Position numbers and translations under genes: made by a program
Assembly (NCBI GenBank): GCA_051881715.1
Contig: JBJEQK010000010.1
Location: 1-57,096, forward strand
Reading direction: 5' to 3'
From: Acutalibacteraceae bacterium
Lineage (GTDB): Bacteria; Bacillota; Clostridia; Oscillospirales; Acutalibacteraceae
Length of the DNA stretch: 57,096 bases
In this document: positions 1,225 through 42,461 of the stretch, piece after piece
Position numbering within the stretch: the first letter of the stretch is position 1
How the letters are laid out: every line of letters starts with the position of its first letter
Notes under the pieces: model-generated
What the model was told of the DNA's origin: nothing
What the model saw: only the letters and a program-made list of their open reading frames with translations
The model's database searches: none

Positions 1225-2589
1225 TTACCAACCGTATTTTTCAGGCCCCCAATGTTTTTCGCAGAGCTTTTGCTCCTGATAGAGCAGTGTGTTGTCCGGC
1301 ACATCCCGATTGAGCAGAACACCGGGACCGATCACGCTGTAAACACCGACCTTGACGCCCGGCATCAGGATGGCGTTCACGCCCGTGCGGCAGTAATCCC
1401 CCAAGAACACAGCGTCACCGTAGCCGTCATGGAACTCTCTGCGTCCCTTTACTCGCTGTATCGTGATGGAGTCATCGAACCGCAGACTGCCGCAAACGGT
1501 TGCGGCGCCGAGATCGGTATTCTCCCCGATCAAACCGTTCCACTCCATATAATGATAGAGATACACACGATCCATAATCATGCCGTCCAACTCCGCCGCA
1601 TGGCTGACAATGCACTCGTTGCCGACGGTGGAGAATCGCTCGATAAAGCAGGCGTTGCGGATTCGGCACCGATCGCCGATCACCACATTCTCGCTGAGGA
1701 TGGCGCCGTTCTTGACGATGGTATCGTCCCCGATGATCACATTGCCTTCGATAATCACATTTTTTCCGATGGATGAATTTTTGCCAAGCTGAACAAAGCC
1801 GTTCAACACAGCCGTTTCGTCTATGGAAGCGCCCTCGGCCAGAACGTTTTCCGTCAGCGCACCGCACTTTTTCGCATTCATCGCCGCATTGGCAGACAGG
1901 ATGTCCCACGGACGGTCAATGTCGTAAAACGGCTGCTGCGCAGTCACTGCGCAAAGCTTGACGCCACGGCGAAGCTCGTCCCCCAGCGTACTCTCCAGAT
2001 AGCCCTCGATGGGCGGCATCATGCCCACATCCGTATAGGAGAAACGGCAGGGGTTGTACTGCAACGCCTCGAAGATCGTCGGATGAAATGCGAATGCGGC
2101 AAAGTGATGAGTGCTGTCGTCCCGGGAGTGACCGAAAATCTCCGTGATCTCTCCGTTTGCAACATTACAACCGATATGCTCACTGCTTCTGTCCTTGATC
2201 TCCCCGACAAGCGCTGTGTTTTCTCCGTTCTTTTCAAAGGAAGTCGCCAGCATTTGCAGGTCGGATGTGTCCACAATCGTATCGCCGTACAGCAAGAGGA
2301 AATCCTCCTGCACAAAGGGTTCCGCTTTTAACAGAGAATAGGCCGTCCCCTTCGGCGCATCGTCCATAACGATCTGTACATTTTGCGCATCCCGAAAGTA
2401 TCGGCGAATTTCCTCATGAAATCTGCCGGCAACCAAAATAATTTTGTCGAAACCCAGTTCCGTCAGACTGTCCACAGCATAGGACACAATGGGACGGTTG
2501 GAGACAGGCACCATCGTTTTGTTGCGAATCTGGGCATAGGGCCAGATTTTCGTGCCGTTTCCGGCACAGAGGATCACAGCTGTTTTCAT
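1225..2589 (-). CDS. sugar-1-phosphate nucleotidyltransferase fused to a left-handed beta-helix (hexapeptide) domain, GlmU-like architecture
   Basis: N-terminal NTP-transferase loop AVILCAGNGTKIWP. C-terminal half has imperfect hexapeptide repeats (GKNVIIEGNVIIGDDTIVKNGAILSENVVIGDRCRIRN...). Stop/start is tightly coupled to the upstream GH84 gene. Confidence 0.8.
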   Translation of the reverse strand: MKTAVILCAGNGTKIWPYAQIRNKTMVPVSNRPIVSYAVDSLTELGFDKIILVAGRFHEEIRRYFRDAQNVQIVMDDAPKGTAYSLLKAEPFVQEDFLLLYGDTIVDTSDLQMLATSFEKNGENTALVGEIKDRSSEHIGCNVANGEITEIFGHSRDDSTHHFAAFAFHPTIFEALQYNPCRFSYTDVGMMPPIEGYLESTLGDELRRGVKLCAVTAQQPFYDIDRPWDILSANAAMNAKKCGALTENVLAEGASIDETAVLNGFVQLGKNSSIGKNVIIEGNVIIGDDTIVKNGAILSENVVIGDRCRIRNACFIERFSTVGNECIVSHAAELDGMIMDRVYLYHYMEWNGLIGENTDLGAATVCGSLRFDDSITIQRVKGRREFHDGYGDAVFLGDYCRTGVNAILMPGVKVGVYSVIGPGVLLNRDVPDNTLLYQEQKLCEKHWGPEKYGW

Positions 2590-2590
2590 G

Positions 2591-4267
2591 TCAAAGCACC
2601 TCTAAATTTAATATCGTTTCCACAGCAGCCTGAAACGCGAAGTCCGTCATCACTTCGGGCAAGCGCATAAACTGCTGTAATTTTTCGGTAATATTCGTTT
2701 TGCAGGCGAGATCGTCGCTGTGCAGATAGGCGCAGCATAGTGCAAGGATATCCTTCAGGACAAAAAACTTCTCTATCCAAGGGGCAAGCTCCGTGTAAAG
2801 CTCATCGCCTTTACGAGAATCCAGCATATCACAGCACGCCTGTATGCGGCGAAGATATGCCTCTAAGTGCAAGGTTGCAGCCTTTACACCCTGTGTTCTG
2901 CGAAGGGTGTCGAACTGAGAAAGCGCATCCACCATTCTCGGTGAAACCTCGGTTTTCAAACAGGAAACCGTCAGATGCTCTGCAAATAAGGCAAAAATTT
3001 CCGCGTCCTCTCCGACAACTTGAGACAGCGCATACTGCCAAGACTGTTTCTCGCTGTACTGCACAGGGTTCCAAAGATAGTCCGCCACCGTCAGAAGCGG
3101 AATGCGGTTGCAAAGAAAGTACGGCATACAGTTGACGATCACGCCCTGTGCATAACGGTACAGCTCCGGCTCTCGCCCGGTGTACCATCCCAAATGCATT
3201 TCATGGCACATTTCGGCATCATTGACGGGATAATTGTCCCAGTACAGCGGCCTGTGCCGTGTGCAGTCGGCAAAGCGGATAGCCTCGGGGACGGTCAGTT
3301 CCTGCGAACAGATATTGCGCCCCGTCCAAAACATTGGAATACGTCCGTCAATTCCCTGCCCCAGTTTGGAGATATAGTACTCGTCGCCTTTTCCGTGATA
3401 CTGCATCGGGCAGACAGCCAGCTGAATCCCGGCATCCAGATTTGTCAACGCATCAAACAAGCGGTTGACCAAGGAGATATGCGCCCGCACTGTCTCGCCA
3501 TAAAGCGCACGGTCACTTTCAAAATGCAATTCCGGCGTTATATCGTCGAGCAAAAGACCGAACCGGTGGACGCCGATGGCATAGAGCTGTGCACATTTGG
3601 CGACCAATGCCGCAAACTGCTTTTCATCACTATAGCAGATATCCAGCCCCGGTGCAATACAAAACCAAAAATCCACATGACATTCTTTTGCTTTATCCAC
3701 CACGCATTGCAGATGTGCCAAGGATTCGTTCGGGTACAGCTCGTTCCAGCGATCTCTGTGGTACGGGTCATCCTTCGGCGCATAGAAGTATGTATTCATC
3801 CGATAAGCCGACAGCCACTCCAGCATTTCCAGCCGCTGTTCCTGCTTCCACGGTGTGCCGTAAAAGCCCTCGATATAGCCTCGCATGGAAAACAGCGGAT
3901 ACTGCGTAACCGTACCCAGCCGAAACTCGCCGCTAAGAATAGAACGGTACAGGTCGCATAAGGCATAGTAAAGCCCGCGCTCTGCACTGAAAGTGATGTG
4001 CGCAAATAGTCTTCCGTCCTTAAATTCAGTCGCTAAAATGTATTTTTCCTCGGAAAGCGTTCTGCTTTCCTCGATATAGGTGAGAGTGCGGGAATCATCC
4101 TGCGCGGCACAGATCACCAAATTGCCGTTTTCATCGAACGGGATCTGTCGTTTTTGGAAGAAAAGTGTAATGTAATCTGCTTTACACCCTATTGTACATA
4201 CAGAAGATATGTCAAGTTTAAAAGCTTTACAAGTAATGCTTTCTTTCTGCGGATTGGAAAAGTACAT
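2591..4267 (-). CDS. GH84 beta-N-acetylglucosaminidase (O-GlcNAcase/NagJ-like), no signal peptide
   Basis: YIEGFYGTPWKQEQRLEMLEWLSAYRMNTYFYAPKDDPYHR and the catalytic-pair context FGLLLDDI are typical of GH84. The N-terminus MYFSNPQKESITCKAF is not hydrophobic. AGGAGG RBS. Confidence 0.85.
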   Translation of the reverse strand: MYFSNPQKESITCKAFKLDISSVCTIGCKADYITLFFQKRQIPFDENGNLVICAAQDDSRTLTYIEESRTLSEEKYILATEFKDGRLFAHITFSAERGLYYALCDLYRSILSGEFRLGTVTQYPLFSMRGYIEGFYGTPWKQEQRLEMLEWLSAYRMNTYFYAPKDDPYHRDRWNELYPNESLAHLQCVVDKAKECHVDFWFCIAPGLDICYSDEKQFAALVAKCAQLYAIGVHRFGLLLDDITPELHFESDRALYGETVRAHISLVNRLFDALTNLDAGIQLAVCPMQYHGKGDEYYISKLGQGIDGRIPMFWTGRNICSQELTVPEAIRFADCTRHRPLYWDNYPVNDAEMCHEMHLGWYTGREPELYRYAQGVIVNCMPYFLCNRIPLLTVADYLWNPVQYSEKQSWQYALSQVVGEDAEIFALFAEHLTVSCLKTEVSPRMVDALSQFDTLRRTQGVKAATLHLEAYLRRIQACCDMLDSRKGDELYTELAPWIEKFFVLKDILALCCAYLHSDDLACKTNITEKLQQFMRLPEVMTDFAFQAAVETILNLEVL

Positions 4268-4269
4268 TT

Positions 4270-5235
4270 TCAGTCCTCCTGCGGGGAATAGGTTGCACGG
4301 ATCGTTTGTAAAAGCGTGTCGTCCGCGCGGATGCCGATCTGTTTCATGGCGGCCAGCACGGCGCCGACCTCCGGCGGGCAGTCCAGCAGTGCGACTTTTT
4401 CATAACCCTGTTTCGCCAAACAGTCCATAAAGATGTTTCGGAAAAAGTGCGCATGGCAAAAAACGCCGCCCCAAAGTCCGATGCGTATTTCCTTTGGCAT
4501 ATCCCGAACCAGAGAAAGCACCGTTTCAGAAAAATCCTGTGCCTGGGATTGTAAAATGGAGCGTGCCACCGCATCCCCCTCTTCGGCACAGGCACAAACC
4601 GCCGGGAGAAACGCCGCCACATCCTGCCTGCGGATCGGGGGATCGTAAAAGCGCCCGATCAGAGCATCGGCATCCACAGCATCGAAATGGTGAAAGGCAG
4701 CCTTTGTCAGCGCTGTGGGAGCCGCTGTCCCCTCCGCACCACGCATTGCCGCACGAACCGCCTCCAGCGATATGGCATATCCGCTCCCCTCGTCGCCGAG
4801 CAAAAAGCCAAACCCGCCCCGGTGTGTTATCCTGCCATCCTCCCCTTTGGCAACAGCCATGGAGCCGGTACCGCAGATTGCAACAGCGCACGGCGGCTCT
4901 GTATGCATTGCCTCCAAGGCGATGAACAAGTCGCTGTCCATGCCCAGCGCCTTTGCCGAAAGAATGCCGTCGCAAAAAGAATGCAGTTCCTGCGCAGTAG
5001 CTGCACAATTCAGCGCTGACATCCCAATAAACGCACTCTCAAAGCTCCCGTTTTGTGTGTAGGGCATCATCTGCTCCACGATCTGCGACAGTTGTTCCCG
5101 TGCTTTGGACAGCGGGTTGGAATAGTAATTGATACTCCCAGCCTGTACACGATGTACAAACTGACCGTCCCGGGTAAAAAGAACCGCTGTTGTCTTGCTG
5201 CCGCCGCCGTCAATCCCAAGAATCATACGCTTCAC
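4270..5235 (-). CDS. BadF/BadG/BcrA/BcrD-type ATPase, N-acetylglucosamine kinase-like
   Basis: MILGIDGGGSKTTAVL phosphate-1 motif, ICGTGS, and GDEGSG typical of the GlcNAc kinase family. Its stop is 2 nt from the GH84 start. Confidence 0.8.
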   Translation of the reverse strand: MKRMILGIDGGGSKTTAVLFTRDGQFVHRVQAGSINYYSNPLSKAREQLSQIVEQMMPYTQNGSFESAFIGMSALNCAATAQELHSFCDGILSAKALGMDSDLFIALEAMHTEPPCAVAICGTGSMAVAKGEDGRITHRGGFGFLLGDEGSGYAISLEAVRAAMRGAEGTAAPTALTKAAFHHFDAVDADALIGRFYDPPIRRQDVAAFLPAVCACAEEGDAVARSILQSQAQDFSETVLSLVRDMPKEIRIGLWGGVFCHAHFFRNIFMDCLAKQGYEKVALLDCPPEVGAVLAAMKQIGIRADDTLLQTIRATYSPQED

Positions 5236-24193: not shown

Positions 24194-24280
24194 TGGTGCC
24201 GGTGGCGGGGGTCGAACCCGCACGGTATCGCTACCACTGGATTTTGAGTCCAGCACGTCTGCCAATTCCATCACACCGGC
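24194..24280 (-). tRNA. tRNA-Leu (anticodon CAA), type II with long variable arm, CCA encoded
   Basis: Minus strand reads GCCGGTG...CTGGA-CTCAAAA-TCCAG...GCGGGTTCGACCCCCGC-CACCGGC-A-CCA. It has a 7-bp acceptor stem, anticodon loop CUCAAAA, a TTCGA T-loop and a 15-nt variable arm. Confidence 0.9.
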
Positions 24281-25481: not shown

Positions 25482-25507
25482 AAACGGCACCCAATCAGAT
25501 GCCGTTT
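25482..25507 (-). terminator. distal copy of the duplicated oad-operon terminator hairpin (full U-tract)
   Basis: Minus strand reads AAACGGCAUCUGAUUGGGUGCCGUUU, followed by UUGC. The 9-bp stem is GAAACGGCA/UGCCGUUUC. It is a direct repeat of 25746-25771. Confidence 0.6.
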
Positions 25508-25745
25508 CAGACTGTCGATAAAGGCGCCCGAGCGCATACATGACAGTGCTAAAAAAGCCAGAAGCATCGGCAAAGACATAGGAAACACGAGCAGCGACAC
25601 GGCATCGAACCGTTTCGCTGCTCGTATGCTTGCCGCTTTTTCGGGCTCGGAGTACCCTTGTACGCCTATCGCCCGAAGAAAACGGCATCGGGCATCCTTT
25701 CTCGCCAGCCTGCCAGCTTGTCGAAAATGCTTTTTCGACAAGCTG
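25508..25745 (-). repeat. copy 1 (238 bp) of a structured terminator-associated repeat (MITE-like element or 3'-UTR ncRNA candidate)
   Basis: By eye ~85-90% identical to 39170-39406 and 34501-34704 when reverse-complemented. Sense strand starts CAGCTTGTCGAAAAAGCATTTTCGACAAGCT and ends ...TATCGACAGTCTG. Confidence 0.8.
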
Positions 25746-25771
25746 AAACGGCACCCATGCGGATGCCGTTT
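25746..25771 (-). terminator. proximal copy of the duplicated terminator hairpin, 12 nt after the oadB stop, U-tract truncated to UUU
   Basis: Minus strand reads AAACGGCAUCCGCAUGGGUGCCGUUU, followed directly by CAGC of the repeat. It differs from 25482-25507 only at three loop positions. Confidence 0.6.
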
Positions 25772-25783
25772 CAGATGACGTTA

Positions 25784-26956
25784 TTAACCGAACACGTACA
25801 GCAGGAAACCTGCCGCAACAGCGGAACCGATGACGCCGGCCACATTGGGTCCCATGGCGTGCATCAGAAGGAAGTTGGACGGGTTCGCTTTCTGTCCCTC
25901 TGCCTGTGCCACACGGGCAGCCATGGGAACAGCCGAAACACCTGCGGAACCGATCAAGGGATTGATCTTGCCGCCGGAAAGCTTGCACATCAGCTTGCCG
26001 AAAAGCAAGCCGCCAATGGTGGCAAAGCAGAACGCCAGCAGACCAAGAACAATGATCTTGATCGTTTCCCAAGAAAGGAATCGGTCATACACTGCCGTTG
26101 CACCGACCGAAATGCCTAAGAAAATCGTGATGATGTTCATCAGTGCATTCTGCGCCGTATCCGCCAATCTGTCCGTCACACCGCACTCCTTGAGCAAATT
26201 GCCGAGCATCAGACAGCCGATCAGGGATGCGACCGAAGGAAGAATCAACACAGTCAGGATCGTCACCGCAATGGGGAAGATGATCTTGACGGTTTTGGAA
26301 ACGGGCTTGAGGGTATCCATCTTGATCTCGCGTTCTTTCTTGGTGGTGAGCAAGCGCATCAGCGGAGGCTGGATCAGAGGGATCAGCGCCATGTAGGAGT
26401 ACGCCGCAATGGCGATGGGACCCAAATACTCGGGCGCCAAGGTCTTGGTCACGAAGATTGCCGTCGGGCCGTCCGCACCGCCGATGATGGCGATGGCCGC
26501 CGCAACATTGGTGTCAAAGCCCAGAACGACCGCCAGAATCAATGCGCAGTAAATACCGAACTGCGCCGCCGCACCGAGAAGCAGGGACTTCGGGTTGGAA
26601 AGAAGCGGTCCGAAATCCGTCATGGCACCGACGCCCAAGAAGATCAGCGACGGGTAGATGCCGGTTTTGACGCCGATATACAGGTAGTCCAAAAAGCCGC
26701 CGTCATGCAAAATGTCGGCATAGCTGATGCTTGTTCCACTCCACAGCTCCGGGTGGTACAACCCGGCCACCGGGAGATTGGTCAGCAGCATACCGAATGC
26801 GATACCGACGAGAAGAAGCGGTTCAAATTTTTTACGAATGCCGAGGTACAGCAGAGCACAGGCAATACCGATCATGACAAACTGACGCCAGTCAGCCAGA
26901 CCGAAAAAGCCGGAATTCTCCCACAAGCCTCGGAGTGAATCCACGATCATCTGCAT
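25784..26956 (-). CDS. oadB: Na+-transporting oxaloacetate decarboxylase beta subunit (OadB/GcdB/MmdB family)
   Basis: MQMIVDSLRGLWENSGF...FEPLLLVGIAFGMLLTNLP and the conserved segments IGGADGPT and GSAGVSAVPMAARV. Confidence 0.9.
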   Translation of the reverse strand: MQMIVDSLRGLWENSGFFGLADWRQFVMIGIACALLYLGIRKKFEPLLLVGIAFGMLLTNLPVAGLYHPELWSGTSISYADILHDGGFLDYLYIGVKTGIYPSLIFLGVGAMTDFGPLLSNPKSLLLGAAAQFGIYCALILAVVLGFDTNVAAAIAIIGGADGPTAIFVTKTLAPEYLGPIAIAAYSYMALIPLIQPPLMRLLTTKKEREIKMDTLKPVSKTVKIIFPIAVTILTVLILPSVASLIGCLMLGNLLKECGVTDRLADTAQNALMNIITIFLGISVGATAVYDRFLSWETIKIIVLGLLAFCFATIGGLLFGKLMCKLSGGKINPLIGSAGVSAVPMAARVAQAEGQKANPSNFLLMHAMGPNVAGVIGSAVAAGFLLYVFG

Positions 26957-34464: not shown

Positions 34465-34500
34465 GCGAACCCGTTTCAAAAACTGCACAGGCATAAAAAA

Positions 34501-34704
34501 CAGACTGGCGAGAAAGGACGCCCGATGCCGTTTTCTTCGGGCGATAGGCGTACAAGGGTACTCCGAGCCCGAAAAAACGGCAAGCATACAAGCAGCGGCA
34601 CGGTTCGACGCCGTGCTGCTGCTTGTGTTTCGTATGGTCTGCCAATGCTTCCGTCTATTCCCTGCACTGTCGTGTATGCGCTCGGGCGCCTTTATCGACA
34701 GTCT
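34501..34704 (+). repeat. copy 2 (204 bp, short variant) of the structured terminator-associated repeat
   Basis: Starts CAGACTGGCGAGAAAGG and ends CGACAGTCT(G). It lacks the 33-nt 5' hairpin module of copies 1 and 3, and is flanked by the 10-bp direct repeat GCATAAAAAA (34491-34500 and 34705-34714). Confidence 0.8.
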
Positions 34705-34706
34705 GC

Positions 34707-34740
34707 ATAAAAAAGGAGCTGTCCCATCGAGGCAGCTCCT
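34707..34740 (-). terminator. intrinsic terminator of the 34755-35651 lipoprotein gene
   Basis: AGGAGCTG/CAGCTCCT stem (34714-34721/34733-34740), followed on the minus strand by UUUUUUAUG. Confidence 0.55.
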
Positions 34741-39139: not shown

Positions 39140-39169
39140 AGGAGCTGCGCGCATGGCGTCAGCTCCTTT
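39140..39169 (+). terminator. proximal copy of the duplicated HK/HAD terminator hairpin (A-run kept, U-tract cut to UUU)
   Basis: AGGAGCTGCGCGCATGGCGTCAGCTCCTTT, 8 nt after the HK stop, identical to 39407-39436. Confidence 0.6.
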
Positions 39170-39406
39170 CAGCTTGTCGAAAAAGTATTTTCGGCAAGCT
39201 GGCAGACTGGAGAGAAAGGATGTCCGATGCCGTTTTCTTCGGGCGATAGGCGTACAAAGGTACTCCGAGCCCGAAAAAACGGCAAGCATACAAGCAGTGG
39301 CACGGTTCGACGCCGTGCCACTGCTTGTGTATCGTAGGGTCTGCCGATGCTTCCGACTTTTCCTACACTGTCGTGTATGCGCTCGGGCGCCTTTATCAAC
39401 AGTCTG
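39170..39406 (+). repeat. copy 3 (237 bp) of the structured terminator-associated repeat
   Basis: Starts CAGCTTGTCGAAAAAGTATTTTCGGCAAGCT and ends TATCAACAGTCTG. It is bracketed by a perfect 30-bp direct repeat. Confidence 0.8.
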
Positions 39407-39436
39407 AGGAGCTGCGCGCATGGCGTCAGCTCCTTT
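39407..39436. terminator. distal copy of the duplicated terminator hairpin (full T-run); contains the HAD stop codon
   Basis: AGGAGCTGCGCGCATGGCGTCAGCTCCTTT plus TTT. The stop codon of the minus-strand HAD gene (39426-39428) and its last 4 codons lie in the 3' arm and T-run. Confidence 0.6.
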
Positions 39437-40100: not shown

Positions 40101-42461
40101 TTACACCTTTTCGAGTTTTGCGTATTTTGCCATGACTTTCTTTGTGCCTGCCTTTTCAAAGGCGATCTCCAAAAGCAGGTCGTTACCCATGCTCTTGACG
40201 GAAAGGACTACGCCCTGCCCGAAGGCCTTGTGCAGGACACCGTCTCCGACAGAAAAGCGCATCTCCGATTGTAAAGCGGATTCCTTTACATTTGAGAAGC
40301 CGCGATCCACCTTGTTTTTCTGTAAAGGCTTTGACCTTTCCATCGAAACAGACACCGTACTGCGTTTGAAAGAGGAGCCGGTCTGCTCCAAAAGTGTATG
40401 GGGAATCTCCGCAATGAAGCACGAGGGCGGATTGAAATTCGTACTGCCGAACATCATACGAGATCGTGCATTGGTCATGACCAATTTTTTCTTGGCTCGG
40501 GTGATGGCAACATAGGCAAGGCGCCGTTCTTCCTCCATGTCCTGCGCATCATACTGGGACTGGGCGCCCGGGAAAACGCCGTCCTCCATGCCCACAAGAA
40601 ACACATTGTTGAATTCCAACCCTTTGGCGGCATGGATGGTCATCAAAACCACGCTGTCGGAATCCGCATTGAACGCATCAATGTCGGTCATCAGCGCGAC
40701 CTCCTCCAAAAATCCATTCAGGGACGGCTCCTGTGCTTCCGCTTCATATCTCTGCAAGTTGGCGGCAAGCTCGTTCAGGTTTGCGGCACGATCCACAAAT
40801 GTCGCAGGGTCCGCCTCCAGCGATTGCAGATAGCCGCTGTCCTCCAAAACGAACCGCAACAGCTCCGCAAGGGATGTGGTGTCCACTTTTTGCTGATAGG
40901 ATTCAATCATTTCTGTAAAGCTTTTCAGCCTTACAGAGGAGCGGGACAGGCTCGGAAAATCCTCCGCCTGTTTCAGCACTTCAAAAATACTGATGCCGAG
41001 ACCTGCGGCAATTTCTGCGGCATGATTGACAGTGGCCTCCCCGATCCCACGCTTGGGTTCATTGATAATGCGGCGCAAGCGCACATTGTCCGCAGGGTTT
41101 CCGACAACGGTCAAGTATGCGATGGCGTCCCGAATCTCCTTGCGCTCATAAAAGCGATGTCCGCCGATGATTCGGTAAGGGATGCCGGAGCGAACCAGCG
41201 CATTTTCCATGGAGTTGGACAGGGCGTTCATGCGGTAAAGCACGGCATTGTCGTTCCAGCGACCGCCCTCATGCACAAACTGTGCCATGCGGTTGGCCAC
41301 ATAGCGTGCCTCCTGGATCTCATCATCTGCCGTGTGCAGGACAATTTTGTCCCCCTGCCCGTTTGCCGTCCAGAGATTTTTGCCCTTTCGCTGGGCATTG
41401 TGGGCGATCACTGCATTGGCCGCATCGAGAATCGTCTGCGTGGAGCGGTAGTTCTGCTCCAAACGGATGGTGCGTGCGTTGGCGTACTGATCCTCAAAAT
41501 TTAGGATATTTTCGATGGTTGCACCACGGAATTTATATATACTCTGATCATCGTCTCCGACGACGCAGATATTTTGGTGTTTCGCCGCCAAAACGGAGGT
41601 CAGGCGGTACTGGGCGTAGTTGGTGTCCTGATACTCATCCACCATGATGTAGCGGAACCGATTTTGGTAGTAAGAACGAACCTCCTCGTTCTCCTCCAGC
41701 AGGCGCACCGTGTTCATGATGATATCGTCAAAATCCATGGCGTCCGCCGTTTTCAAAAGCTTTTGGTAGCATTCGTAGGCGTCGGCAATGCGGCGCAAAC
41801 GGATATCTCCCGCCGCCTCTTCGGCGTATTCCTCGGGGGTGATCATCTGATTCTTGGCATTGCTGATCTCCCGCAGGATGGTTTTTCTGGACAGAAACTT
41901 TTCGTCGATCTCCAAAATGCGCTGGCATTCCTTCATCACACGCTGGGAATCATCCGTGTCGTAGATGGTGAAATGGGAGGTATAGCCCAAAAGGGTGCCA
42001 TATCGGCGCAGAATGCGGGCGCAGGCGCTGTGAAACGTGCACGCCCAAATATCCTGAATCCCCTCCACAGTGCCCTCCAGCTTTGCCACGATACGTTCCT
42101 TGAGTTCGTTTGCCGCTTTGTTGGTGAACGTGATGGCTAAAATCTCCCACGGCTTCGCCGGGCGCACAGCTAAAAGATCCGTCAATTCCTCGGCGTAGGG
42201 TGCGCCGTCTATGTACGCCTGCATCAGCGCAATATCTGTGGACGTGGGTTCATAACGGACATATTCGGAGGATGCGGCAGAACCGAATTTTAGAAGGTTG
42301 GCGATACGGTTGACAAGCACAGTCGTCTTTCCGCTTCCCGCTCCCGCAAGAACCAAAAGCGGTCCTTCCGTAGAAAGAACCGCTTCTAATTGCTTATCAT
42401 TCATTCTGCCGAAATCTTTTTCGATAACCTGCCTGCGCAGTGTCAAAAATTCATTCTGCAT
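40101..42461 (-). CDS. pcrA: ATP-dependent DNA helicase PcrA/UvrD
   Basis: Start at MQNEFLTL...LNDKQLEAV. Walker A AGAGSGKTT, DEYQDTN, QNYRST and VTLMTIHAAKGLEF-type motifs are present. Confidence 0.9.
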   Translation of the reverse strand: MQNEFLTLRRQVIEKDFGRMNDKQLEAVLSTEGPLLVLAGAGSGKTTVLVNRIANLLKFGSAASSEYVRYEPTSTDIALMQAYIDGAPYAEELTDLLAVRPAKPWEILAITFTNKAANELKERIVAKLEGTVEGIQDIWACTFHSACARILRRYGTLLGYTSHFTIYDTDDSQRVMKECQRILEIDEKFLSRKTILREISNAKNQMITPEEYAEEAAGDIRLRRIADAYECYQKLLKTADAMDFDDIIMNTVRLLEENEEVRSYYQNRFRYIMVDEYQDTNYAQYRLTSVLAAKHQNICVVGDDDQSIYKFRGATIENILNFEDQYANARTIRLEQNYRSTQTILDAANAVIAHNAQRKGKNLWTANGQGDKIVLHTADDEIQEARYVANRMAQFVHEGGRWNDNAVLYRMNALSNSMENALVRSGIPYRIIGGHRFYERKEIRDAIAYLTVVGNPADNVRLRRIINEPKRGIGEATVNHAAEIAAGLGISIFEVLKQAEDFPSLSRSSVRLKSFTEMIESYQQKVDTTSLAELLRFVLEDSGYLQSLEADPATFVDRAANLNELAANLQRYEAEAQEPSLNGFLEEVALMTDIDAFNADSDSVVLMTIHAAKGLEFNNVFLVGMEDGVFPGAQSQYDAQDMEEERRLAYVAITRAKKKLVMTNARSRMMFGSTNFNPPSCFIAEIPHTLLEQTGSSFKRSTVSVSMERSKPLQKNKVDRGFSNVKESALQSEMRFSVGDGVLHKAFGQGVVLSVKSMGNDLLLEIAFEKAGTKKVMAKYAKLEKV

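Follow-up and report, generated by a model that had tools for sequence, protein, structure and literature searches.

The 238-nt element downstream of oadB in the window (the whole stretch of DNA analysed, 57,096 nt from an Acutalibacteraceae bacterium) is mobile and bounded by inverted repeats, and its family inserts at hairpins that are selected by structure irrespective of orientation, duplicating the whole hairpin in the process. At the oadB site, the duplicated hairpins have since drifted in their loops and not in their stems. The element is a MITE, a non-autonomous DNA transposon without room for a transposase gene: it is small, it carries terminal inverted repeats, it lies within a target-site duplication (TSD) for which empty sites exist, and it occurs in multiple dispersed copies.

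Insertion of the element at the oadB terminator

The oadB ORF (25784–26956, minus strand) encodes the beta subunit of oxaloacetate decarboxylase, as indicated by a match to the Pfam family OAD_beta (PF03977, E=1e-159) and by the operon context. Read on the minus strand, the ORF is followed by the hairpin AAACGGCATCCGCATGGGTGCCGTTT (25746–25771), which is the oadB terminator and corresponds to the single ancestral copy present in the related contig L257. Next comes the full-length element, copy A (25508–25745, minus strand), which extends from CAGCTTGTCG to GACAGTCTG. The second copy of the hairpin, AAACGGCATCTGATTGGGTGCCGTTT (25482–25507, minus strand), adjoins the other end of the element and is followed by TTGC, the T-tract thereby being kept. 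Neither hairpin was listed by a simple terminator scan, presumably because the A3/T3 extension of the stem consumes part of the T-run.

In order to compare this site between genomes, related contigs were chosen by their near-identical OadB proteins. In L257, in which OadB is 99% identical, one hairpin, AAACGGCATCCGAATGGGTGCCGTTTTTTT, is found between oadB and the next gene, and there is no element. In L255 and L256, whose OadB protein is the same as in L257, the element lies between two identical copies of the L257-type hairpin. A single hairpin with a different stem, again with no element, is present in L259 and L260 (OadB 98% identical). Since the site is empty in L257 and occupied in L255 and L256, the hairpins flanking copy A constitute a TSD, and comparison of the empty and occupied alleles demonstrates that insertion duplicated exactly the 26-nt palindrome.

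The two 26-mers around copy A differ at exactly three positions, all of them within the 6-nt loop. Under uniform mutation, three substitutions would be confined to the loop with a probability of C(6,3)/C(26,3) = 0.008. The loop reads CCGAAT in L257, L255 and L256, and the loops in the window, CCGCAT and CTGATT, are therefore derived from CCGAAT, with one substitution in the left copy, two in the right copy and no change in either stem. Post-insertion drift at copy A has affected the loops and not the stems. Compared with copy A, the related copy in L255 is younger, its hairpins still being identical.

These results bear on several claims of the first-pass annotation, which was made from the sequence of the window. 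The coordinates and sequences that it gave for the region between 25482 and 25771 are all correct. It had taken the hairpins to be host-derived duplications generated by insertion, a reading borne out by the empty sites of copy A and of copy B (see below). It had further suggested an older insertion in which both stems were maintained, and the drifted loops and intact stems at copy A, set beside the identical copies in L255, agree with this.

Architecture of the element and related forms

The element starts with a perfect 14-bp hairpin, followed by CAGGCTGGCGAGAAAGG, and closes with the inverted counterpart of the latter, CCTTTATCGACAGTCTG. In copy A, the terminal hairpin CAGCTTGTCGAAAA-AGCA-TTTTCGACAAGCTG (25714–25745, minus strand) is composed of the outer inverted repeat and its own inverted copy. 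The inner left inverted repeat (25696–25712, minus strand) pairs with the right end, and the right inverted repeat (25508–25524, minus strand) is common to all subfamilies. An end motif of ~15 nt is present three times at the left end (forward, reverse, forward) and once at the right end, and the ends of the family read CAGCTTGTCGAAAA on the left and TTTATCGACAGTCTG on the right. There are three main subfamilies, of ~160 nt, ~246 nt (the copy A type) and ~242 nt, within a size range of ~160 to ~260 nt.

A number of related forms were encountered. In L088, a 1582-nt composite (3611–5192) consists of a ~163-nt MITE, 1.4 kb of AT-rich DNA containing small ORFs, and a second right end. It is bracketed by a 34-nt hairpin duplication and shows that the system is able to carry cargo. 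Having the same ends, this composite was considered as the autonomous parent of the family, and was rejected in this role because its cargo encodes no transposase. ‘Solo’ terminal hairpins of ~32–37 nt, in which the two ends stand back to back, were seen in L194 (~3490–3535) and L036 (~4150–4220). Each is centred within a host palindrome, whose arms lie to its left and right, and could represent either a minimal element at a palindrome centre or a footprint. A related MITE that differs in its interior is present in ~40 copies in Subdoligranulum variabile TSDC17.2-1.1 (PLSDB OY7258xx), among them one in L002 (1509–1728) with a duplicated hairpin of ~32 nt and one in L196 with a duplication of 38 nt. 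These PLSDB OY7258xx entries include many large unannotated contigs labelled ‘plasmid’ that look like chromosome pieces.

Two further copies in the window

A repeat finder and an alignment revealed both of these copies. Copy C (39170–39406, plus strand; 39140–39436 in total with its duplications) is located between convergent histidine-kinase and HAD-hydrolase genes. It is flanked by identical 30-nt hairpin duplications, AGGAGCTGCGCGCATGGCGTCAGCTCCTTT (39140–39169 and 39407–39436, plus strand), which are unrelated to the hairpin of copy A, and its junctions are the same as those of copy A.

Copy B (34501–34705, plus strand; whole site 34492–34739) is 205 nt long. The first 33 nt and the terminal hairpin are missing, and the copy starts at the third end motif of the full-length form. 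Its duplication is the 9-nt sequence CATAAAAAA (34492–34500 and 34706–34714, plus strand), which abuts an intact terminator hairpin (34715–34739). The duplication stops exactly at the 5′ foot of this hairpin, and the hairpin itself is uncopied. Empty sites in L384 (1494–1616) and L385 (1020–1142) establish that the 9-nt duplication is genuine. Copy B represents a second insertion mode, and this one case hints that the terminal hairpin may act as a switch between the whole-hairpin and the 9-nt modes.

Apart from the element, the window contains a 45-nt direct repeat (4747–4791 and 40800–40844, 73% identity) located inside long ORFs, which is probably paralogous coding sequence or chance.

Choice of target across the family

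To survey the family, one genome per GTDB species was scanned with the exact stem arms of the terminal hairpin and a variable loop, a design that takes in only copies carrying the terminal hairpin. The hairpin was detected at at least 119 genome loci, and among the matches listed all were from Oscillospirales (Oscillibacter, Acutalibacteraceae, Ruminococcaceae and related MAGs). Oscillibacter valericigenes An860 and An890 are examples of carrier strains. Short-read assemblies tend to break inside the element, leaving contigs that end ~20–100 nt into it, as seen in L001, L382 and L383 (Logan SRR30616851) and in the GTDB contigs L014, L045, L046, L070, L083, L104 and L106. Copy number in MAGs is therefore underestimated.

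Sites with at least 350 nt on either side were treated as fully testable, which gave 69 sites among the matches listed. At 51 of them (74%), a duplication abutted both ends of the element, and in every one of the 51 the duplicated stretch was a hairpin of at least 6 bp. The duplications ranged from 18 to 39 nt in length, with a median of 27, and their sequences were unrelated. At the 42 overlapping gap-free sites, the unpaired overhang, or distance to the G+C-rich foot of the stem, was 0–1 nt in ~85–90%, and no spacer was present in 25 of the 51. At a few sites with long palindromes (L096, L081), the duplication ended inside the stem and not at its base. A stagger of fixed length was considered and rejected, as the duplications of 18–39 nt track the stems.

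Terminator-like features, in the form of an A-rich head and/or a T-rich tail, accompanied 44 of the 51 targets. When scored relative to the orientation of the element, 16 targets had a T-tail only, 15 had an A-head only, 13 had both and seven had neither. Since the palindromes are unrelated and there is no orientation bias, targeting is by structure and is orientation-neutral. What the element reads is the structure of the hairpin and not the U-tract or a ‘third T’; the same absence of bias led us to reject recognition of the U-tract.

The first-pass annotation had argued for recognition of terminator structure or the U-tract rather than of a sequence. The 51 unrelated palindromes sustain the first half of this proposal, whereas the second half falls with the split of 16 against 15 in orientation. 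It had also put the site of insertion behind the third T of the U-tract, for which we find no rule: the duplication usually ends within 0–1 nt of the G+C-rich stem foot, and the TTT at copies A and C is a part of the palindrome that pairs with the upstream AAA. As a description of the event, staggered cleavage to either side of the palindrome is preferable to insertion at one point. The original proposal would have been refuted if most copies lay away from terminator hairpins or lacked flanking duplications; with 51 of the 69 sites duplicated, all of them at hairpins, it survives this check.

In five cases (L048, L059, L063, L084 and L099), all at the flanks of ~160-nt elements, the loop is inverted between the duplicate hairpins, for example AAAA versus TTTT or TTTG versus AAAG, and in L099 this is accompanied by a compensating stem change. 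Loop flipping was considered as a step of the mechanism and discarded, these five pairs, checked by eye, being probably the result of secondary inversion by the hairpin arms.

A candidate mobilising enzyme and mechanism

From the results presented thus far, it seems probable that a DDE transposase supplied in trans mobilises the MITE. This enzyme, most likely a member of the IS1182 family, would choose palindromes by their shape and join the element near their feet, gap repair then duplicating the hairpin. As no autonomous parent was found, we infer the assignment to the IS1182 family, which we favour with a little less assurance, from the ends of the element and from its target habit.

According to this model, the transposase would recognise by shape a palindrome that is extruded or extrudable, such as the hairpin of an intrinsic terminator. 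Two strand transfers would occur on opposite strands, at or near both feet of the palindrome, and these feet would be adjacent once the palindrome was extruded as a cruciform. When the two single-stranded gaps were repaired, the entire palindrome would be copied, leaving a hairpin on each side of the element. Joining at the feet followed by gap repair would account for a duplication whose length tracks the hairpin, for random orientation and for the retention of a terminator by both neighbouring genes. With the upstream gene still terminated and the element itself bracketed by terminators, insertion would be nearly harmless, perhaps accounting for the success of the family.

We compared the ends of the element by eye with those of IS1182-family members: the IS1272 end TCAGGCTGGGACATAAA shares 8/8 nt, CAGGCTGG, with the inner left end, in which GCAGGCTGGCGAG matches the IS1272 end TCAGGCTGGGACA; the right end, CAGACTGTCGATAAA, resembles the GGGGCTGTCGCATTAA-type ends of full-length IS1182-family elements; and the core CTGTCG.A..AA is common to GGGGCTGTCGCA-type IS1182 ends and the element. 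Viral contigs and plasmids yielded ~40 IS1182-family elements of full length, whose ends are of the type (A/G)GGGCTGTCGCA..AA. Many full-length members of the family have a terminal hairpin consisting of the end and its inverted copy, as is the case here, and their flanks often open with a T-run or correspond to the two halves of a palindrome. By this comparison, the MITE resembles the IS1182 family in end architecture and target habit. The direct repeats recorded in ISfinder for IS1182 span 0–60 bp.

Searches for the enzyme itself gave IS1182-type genes at two places in the hosts, a 73-aa fragment at a contig end in L081 and a full copy in S. variabile (L201). When five and then nine IS1182-family transposases were used in tblastn searches against all loci, only the L081 fragment was recovered; it is unlinked to element ends, and a protein search with it returned no match. 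Similarly, no IS1182-type DDE transposase linked to the ends of the element was detected, the S. variabile copy having different ends. Autonomous elements bounded by CAGCTTGTCG...GACAGTCTG were found neither in ~770 kb of genome loci nor in the viral contigs or S. variabile. In the genome loci, no end pairs spaced 0.6–5 kb apart were found, and the recurrent ORFs were host genes only. In the viral contigs, the hairpin pattern without the A-tract yielded only chance matches in coding DNA, and the right-end 15-mer yielded mostly chance matches together with a few more MITEs and no parent.

The S. variabile copy (L201 ~2400–4262; OY725878) is a single-copy, AT-rich IS1182-like element with a 535-aa transposase and the ends GGGGGCTGTTGCAAAAG and GGGGGTGTCGCAAAATC. 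It is located directly after the stop codon of a gene, with TTTTT right after its right end, and looks as if it had replaced the terminator hairpin of this gene in the manner of IS1272.

Several observations count against mobilisation in trans by an IS1182-type enzyme. No autonomous partner was found in the loci searched, and whole-hairpin duplication was seen at none of the ~40 full-length IS1182-family elements inspected, which look as if inserted into palindrome centres or replacing hairpins; nor is it a feature of the published IS1272 events. The duplication ends within the stem in the few long palindromes mentioned above, and that of copy B is an ordinary one of 9 nt. Furthermore, the element has a strand-asymmetric, covarying fold that would be superfluous for plain cut-and-paste transposition of double-stranded DNA.

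A conserved single-strand fold and a shared apical module

The existence of this fold raises a different possibility, which we consider unlikely overall, namely that the functional unit is the conserved fold and not only the ends, the element being either a mobile gene for a structured RNA or a single-stranded DNA element that is strand-specific. As an RNA, it could then be a cofactor in its own transposition or regulate it, or serve as a small RNA useful to the host; alternatively, it could transpose via one folded DNA strand. Hairpin duplication would still occur in this case, structure guiding the choice of both donor and target.

The fold was analysed in 14 diverged copies of the ~246-nt subfamily. 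It comprises five helices formed by a single strand, with 64 pairs, and 96.1% of the cells in the 14 copies are paired, a degree of conservation that speaks for a structured RNA or folded strand. Helix 1, the terminal hairpin, is invariant across the diverged copies, and helix 2 is formed by pairing of the imperfect terminal inverted repeats across the element (20 pairs, 94.6% of cells paired in the 14 copies). Changes on both sides were observed in 26 of the 64 pairs, compared with 16.7±1.9 in shuffled alignments (0/500 reach 26) and at most 11 in slid controls, and all nine pairs of helix 5, which lies outside the inverted repeats, covary. Both results favour a functional fold, as do the excess of G·U over A·C (32 versus 6 cells, 12 versus 4 columns) and the better folding of the top strand in 15/15 copies, although base composition could be part of the reason for this strand asymmetry.

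The tip of helix 3/4 carries a conserved 21-mer, GGCGTACAAGGGTACTCCGAG in copy A (25646–25666, minus strand), and this apical module is found at 34547–34567 in copy B and at 39249–39269 in copy C (both plus strand). In a metagenome scan, the 21-mer GGCGTACAARGGTACNYCGAG was present at at least 120 loci (L262–L381). Its conservation extends to at least 32 other, unrelated sequence contexts, where it caps hairpins whose outer stems differ, a further point on the side of a functional structure. Many of these contexts are MITE-like and have other IS1182-like ends, and in one cluster of at least 53 contigs the module is part of a ~105-nt near-perfect hairpin, AAAAATAAATAACGCGTGCG...CGCACGCGTTATTTATTTTT. 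The register of the internal loop in the outer stems of the module varies between contexts. Among the matches listed, no IS1182 transposase was found within ~7 kb of the 21-mer, which is also absent from the full-length IS1182-family elements examined and corresponds to no Rfam family.

Other features count against an RNA gene or a strand-specific element. No promoter-like site is present in or around copy A, and the orientation of the element is random relative to host transcription. With Rfam 15, at gathering as well as permissive thresholds, no family was assigned to the element and the matches at E values up to 10 were at chance level. (The sole Rfam match above threshold in the window is a tRNA gene at 24197–24280 on the minus strand, 51.4 bits.) The ~160-nt subfamily lacks the apical module and has the opposite strand bias, yet it generates the same hairpin duplications.

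The fold may nevertheless mark a role for single-stranded DNA or RNA, and together with the widely shared module it suggests a function beyond the ends. One way to combine it with the transposase model, which we put forward as a speculation and rate below the RNA-gene or folded-strand alternative, is that structure guides IS1182-type transposition in both of the partners involved. On the target side, a four-way or hairpin DNA junction would be the docking site of the enzyme, which would join at the feet of this junction and thereby make the duplication equal to the palindrome. The non-autonomous passengers would be selected for a multi-helix fold of one strand, capped by the module GGCGUAC-AARG-GUACNYC with GA/GA flanks, that serves as a single-stranded DNA or RNA cofactor. 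If true, structured mobile elements of this kind would form a previously unrecognised class that is widespread among gut bacteria.

Terminator-seeking elements of other kinds, such as a degenerate class C group II intron, an IS200/IS605 or REPIN/RAYT element or a member of the IS110/IS1111 type, would also account for insertion directly at hairpins and for a highly structured element, but this explanation is largely refuted and we regard it as very improbable. These elements make no target duplication and are without terminal inverted repeats, both of which are present here; 238 nt is too small to hold a ribozyme and a reverse transcriptase; and no group II, HEARO or other family was detected at E values up to 10. 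Least probable of all is an origin of the flanking hairpins other than transposition, either as part of the element itself or through tandem duplication or recombination at the site, since, although palindromes are prone to slippage and loop-inverted pairs do occur, the hairpins are wholly different between loci while the element is constant, the duplication abuts both ends at 51 independent loci, and the orthologous empty sites, with exactly one copy each, refute it.

Significance and relation to known systems

Returning to mobilisation in trans by a transposase that selects palindromes by shape, the family offers dozens of independent insertion events, together with empty sites, as a natural data set. 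These events show that secondary structure in DNA can serve a transposase as a ruler: it is the target hairpin, rather than the enzyme, that determines the length of the TSD. In carrier genomes, the doubling of terminators is systematic, with consequences for terminator prediction, for operon calling and, because many contigs break at the element, for assembly. The behaviour suggests a ‘safe-harbour’ logic of insertion in which both neighbouring genes stay terminated.

In its geometry, although only by analogy, the event is reminiscent of Cas1–Cas2 and casposon integration, where staggered attack on either side of a ~30-bp, often palindromic, sequence duplicates that sequence; in the present case, however, there are no cas1-like genes and the ends are IS1182-like. 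The Correia, RUP, ERIC and REPIN repeats are likewise intergenic, multicopy, foldable and often located near gene ends, and are generally described as having short fixed duplications (e.g. TA) or none. To our knowledge, duplication of a whole terminator is unreported for classical bacterial MITEs and repeats (for reviews, see PMC3184786 and PMC10969869).

Closer parallels exist within the IS1182 family. The ISMac2-related MITEs of Methanosarcina are also small IS1182 derivatives, with inverted repeats of 25–26 nt, but their direct repeats are of 0 or 4 bp and neither hairpin targeting nor a conserved internal fold is described for them (PMC3852290). For IS1272 and TnSha1, the targets are terminator-like hairpins, which are entered in either orientation and irrespective of primary sequence, and the published events delete the hairpin (PMC4923244, PMC5678879). 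The present family resembles these elements in its hairpin targets and in its inner left end, which begins (T)CAGGCTGG as their ends do, and the 238-nt element has extra left-end copies like those of the IS1272L form. The two differ in that IS1272 deletes or replaces the stem-loop and makes no duplication, whereas the MITE family duplicates the whole stem-loop. They also differ in kind, IS1272 being an autonomous 1.9-kb element of staphylococci with a 548-aa transposase, while the element described here is 238 nt long, non-coding and found in gut Clostridia.

Overall, targeting of hairpins by the IS1182 family is known and whole-hairpin duplication has been drawn as a possibility, whereas a large natural family with consistent whole-hairpin duplication, empty sites and a structured core appears to be undescribed in the literature searched. 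The possibility in question is pathway b of structure-dependent transposition (Wan et al., 2017, Fig. 13; PMC5678879), a hypothetical scheme that has the element joined to the 5′ feet of a cruciform and the whole stem-loop duplicated as a consequence. It predicts exactly the whole-palindrome duplication found here, and this branch, presented without examples in that work, is now matched by 51 natural examples and by empty sites.
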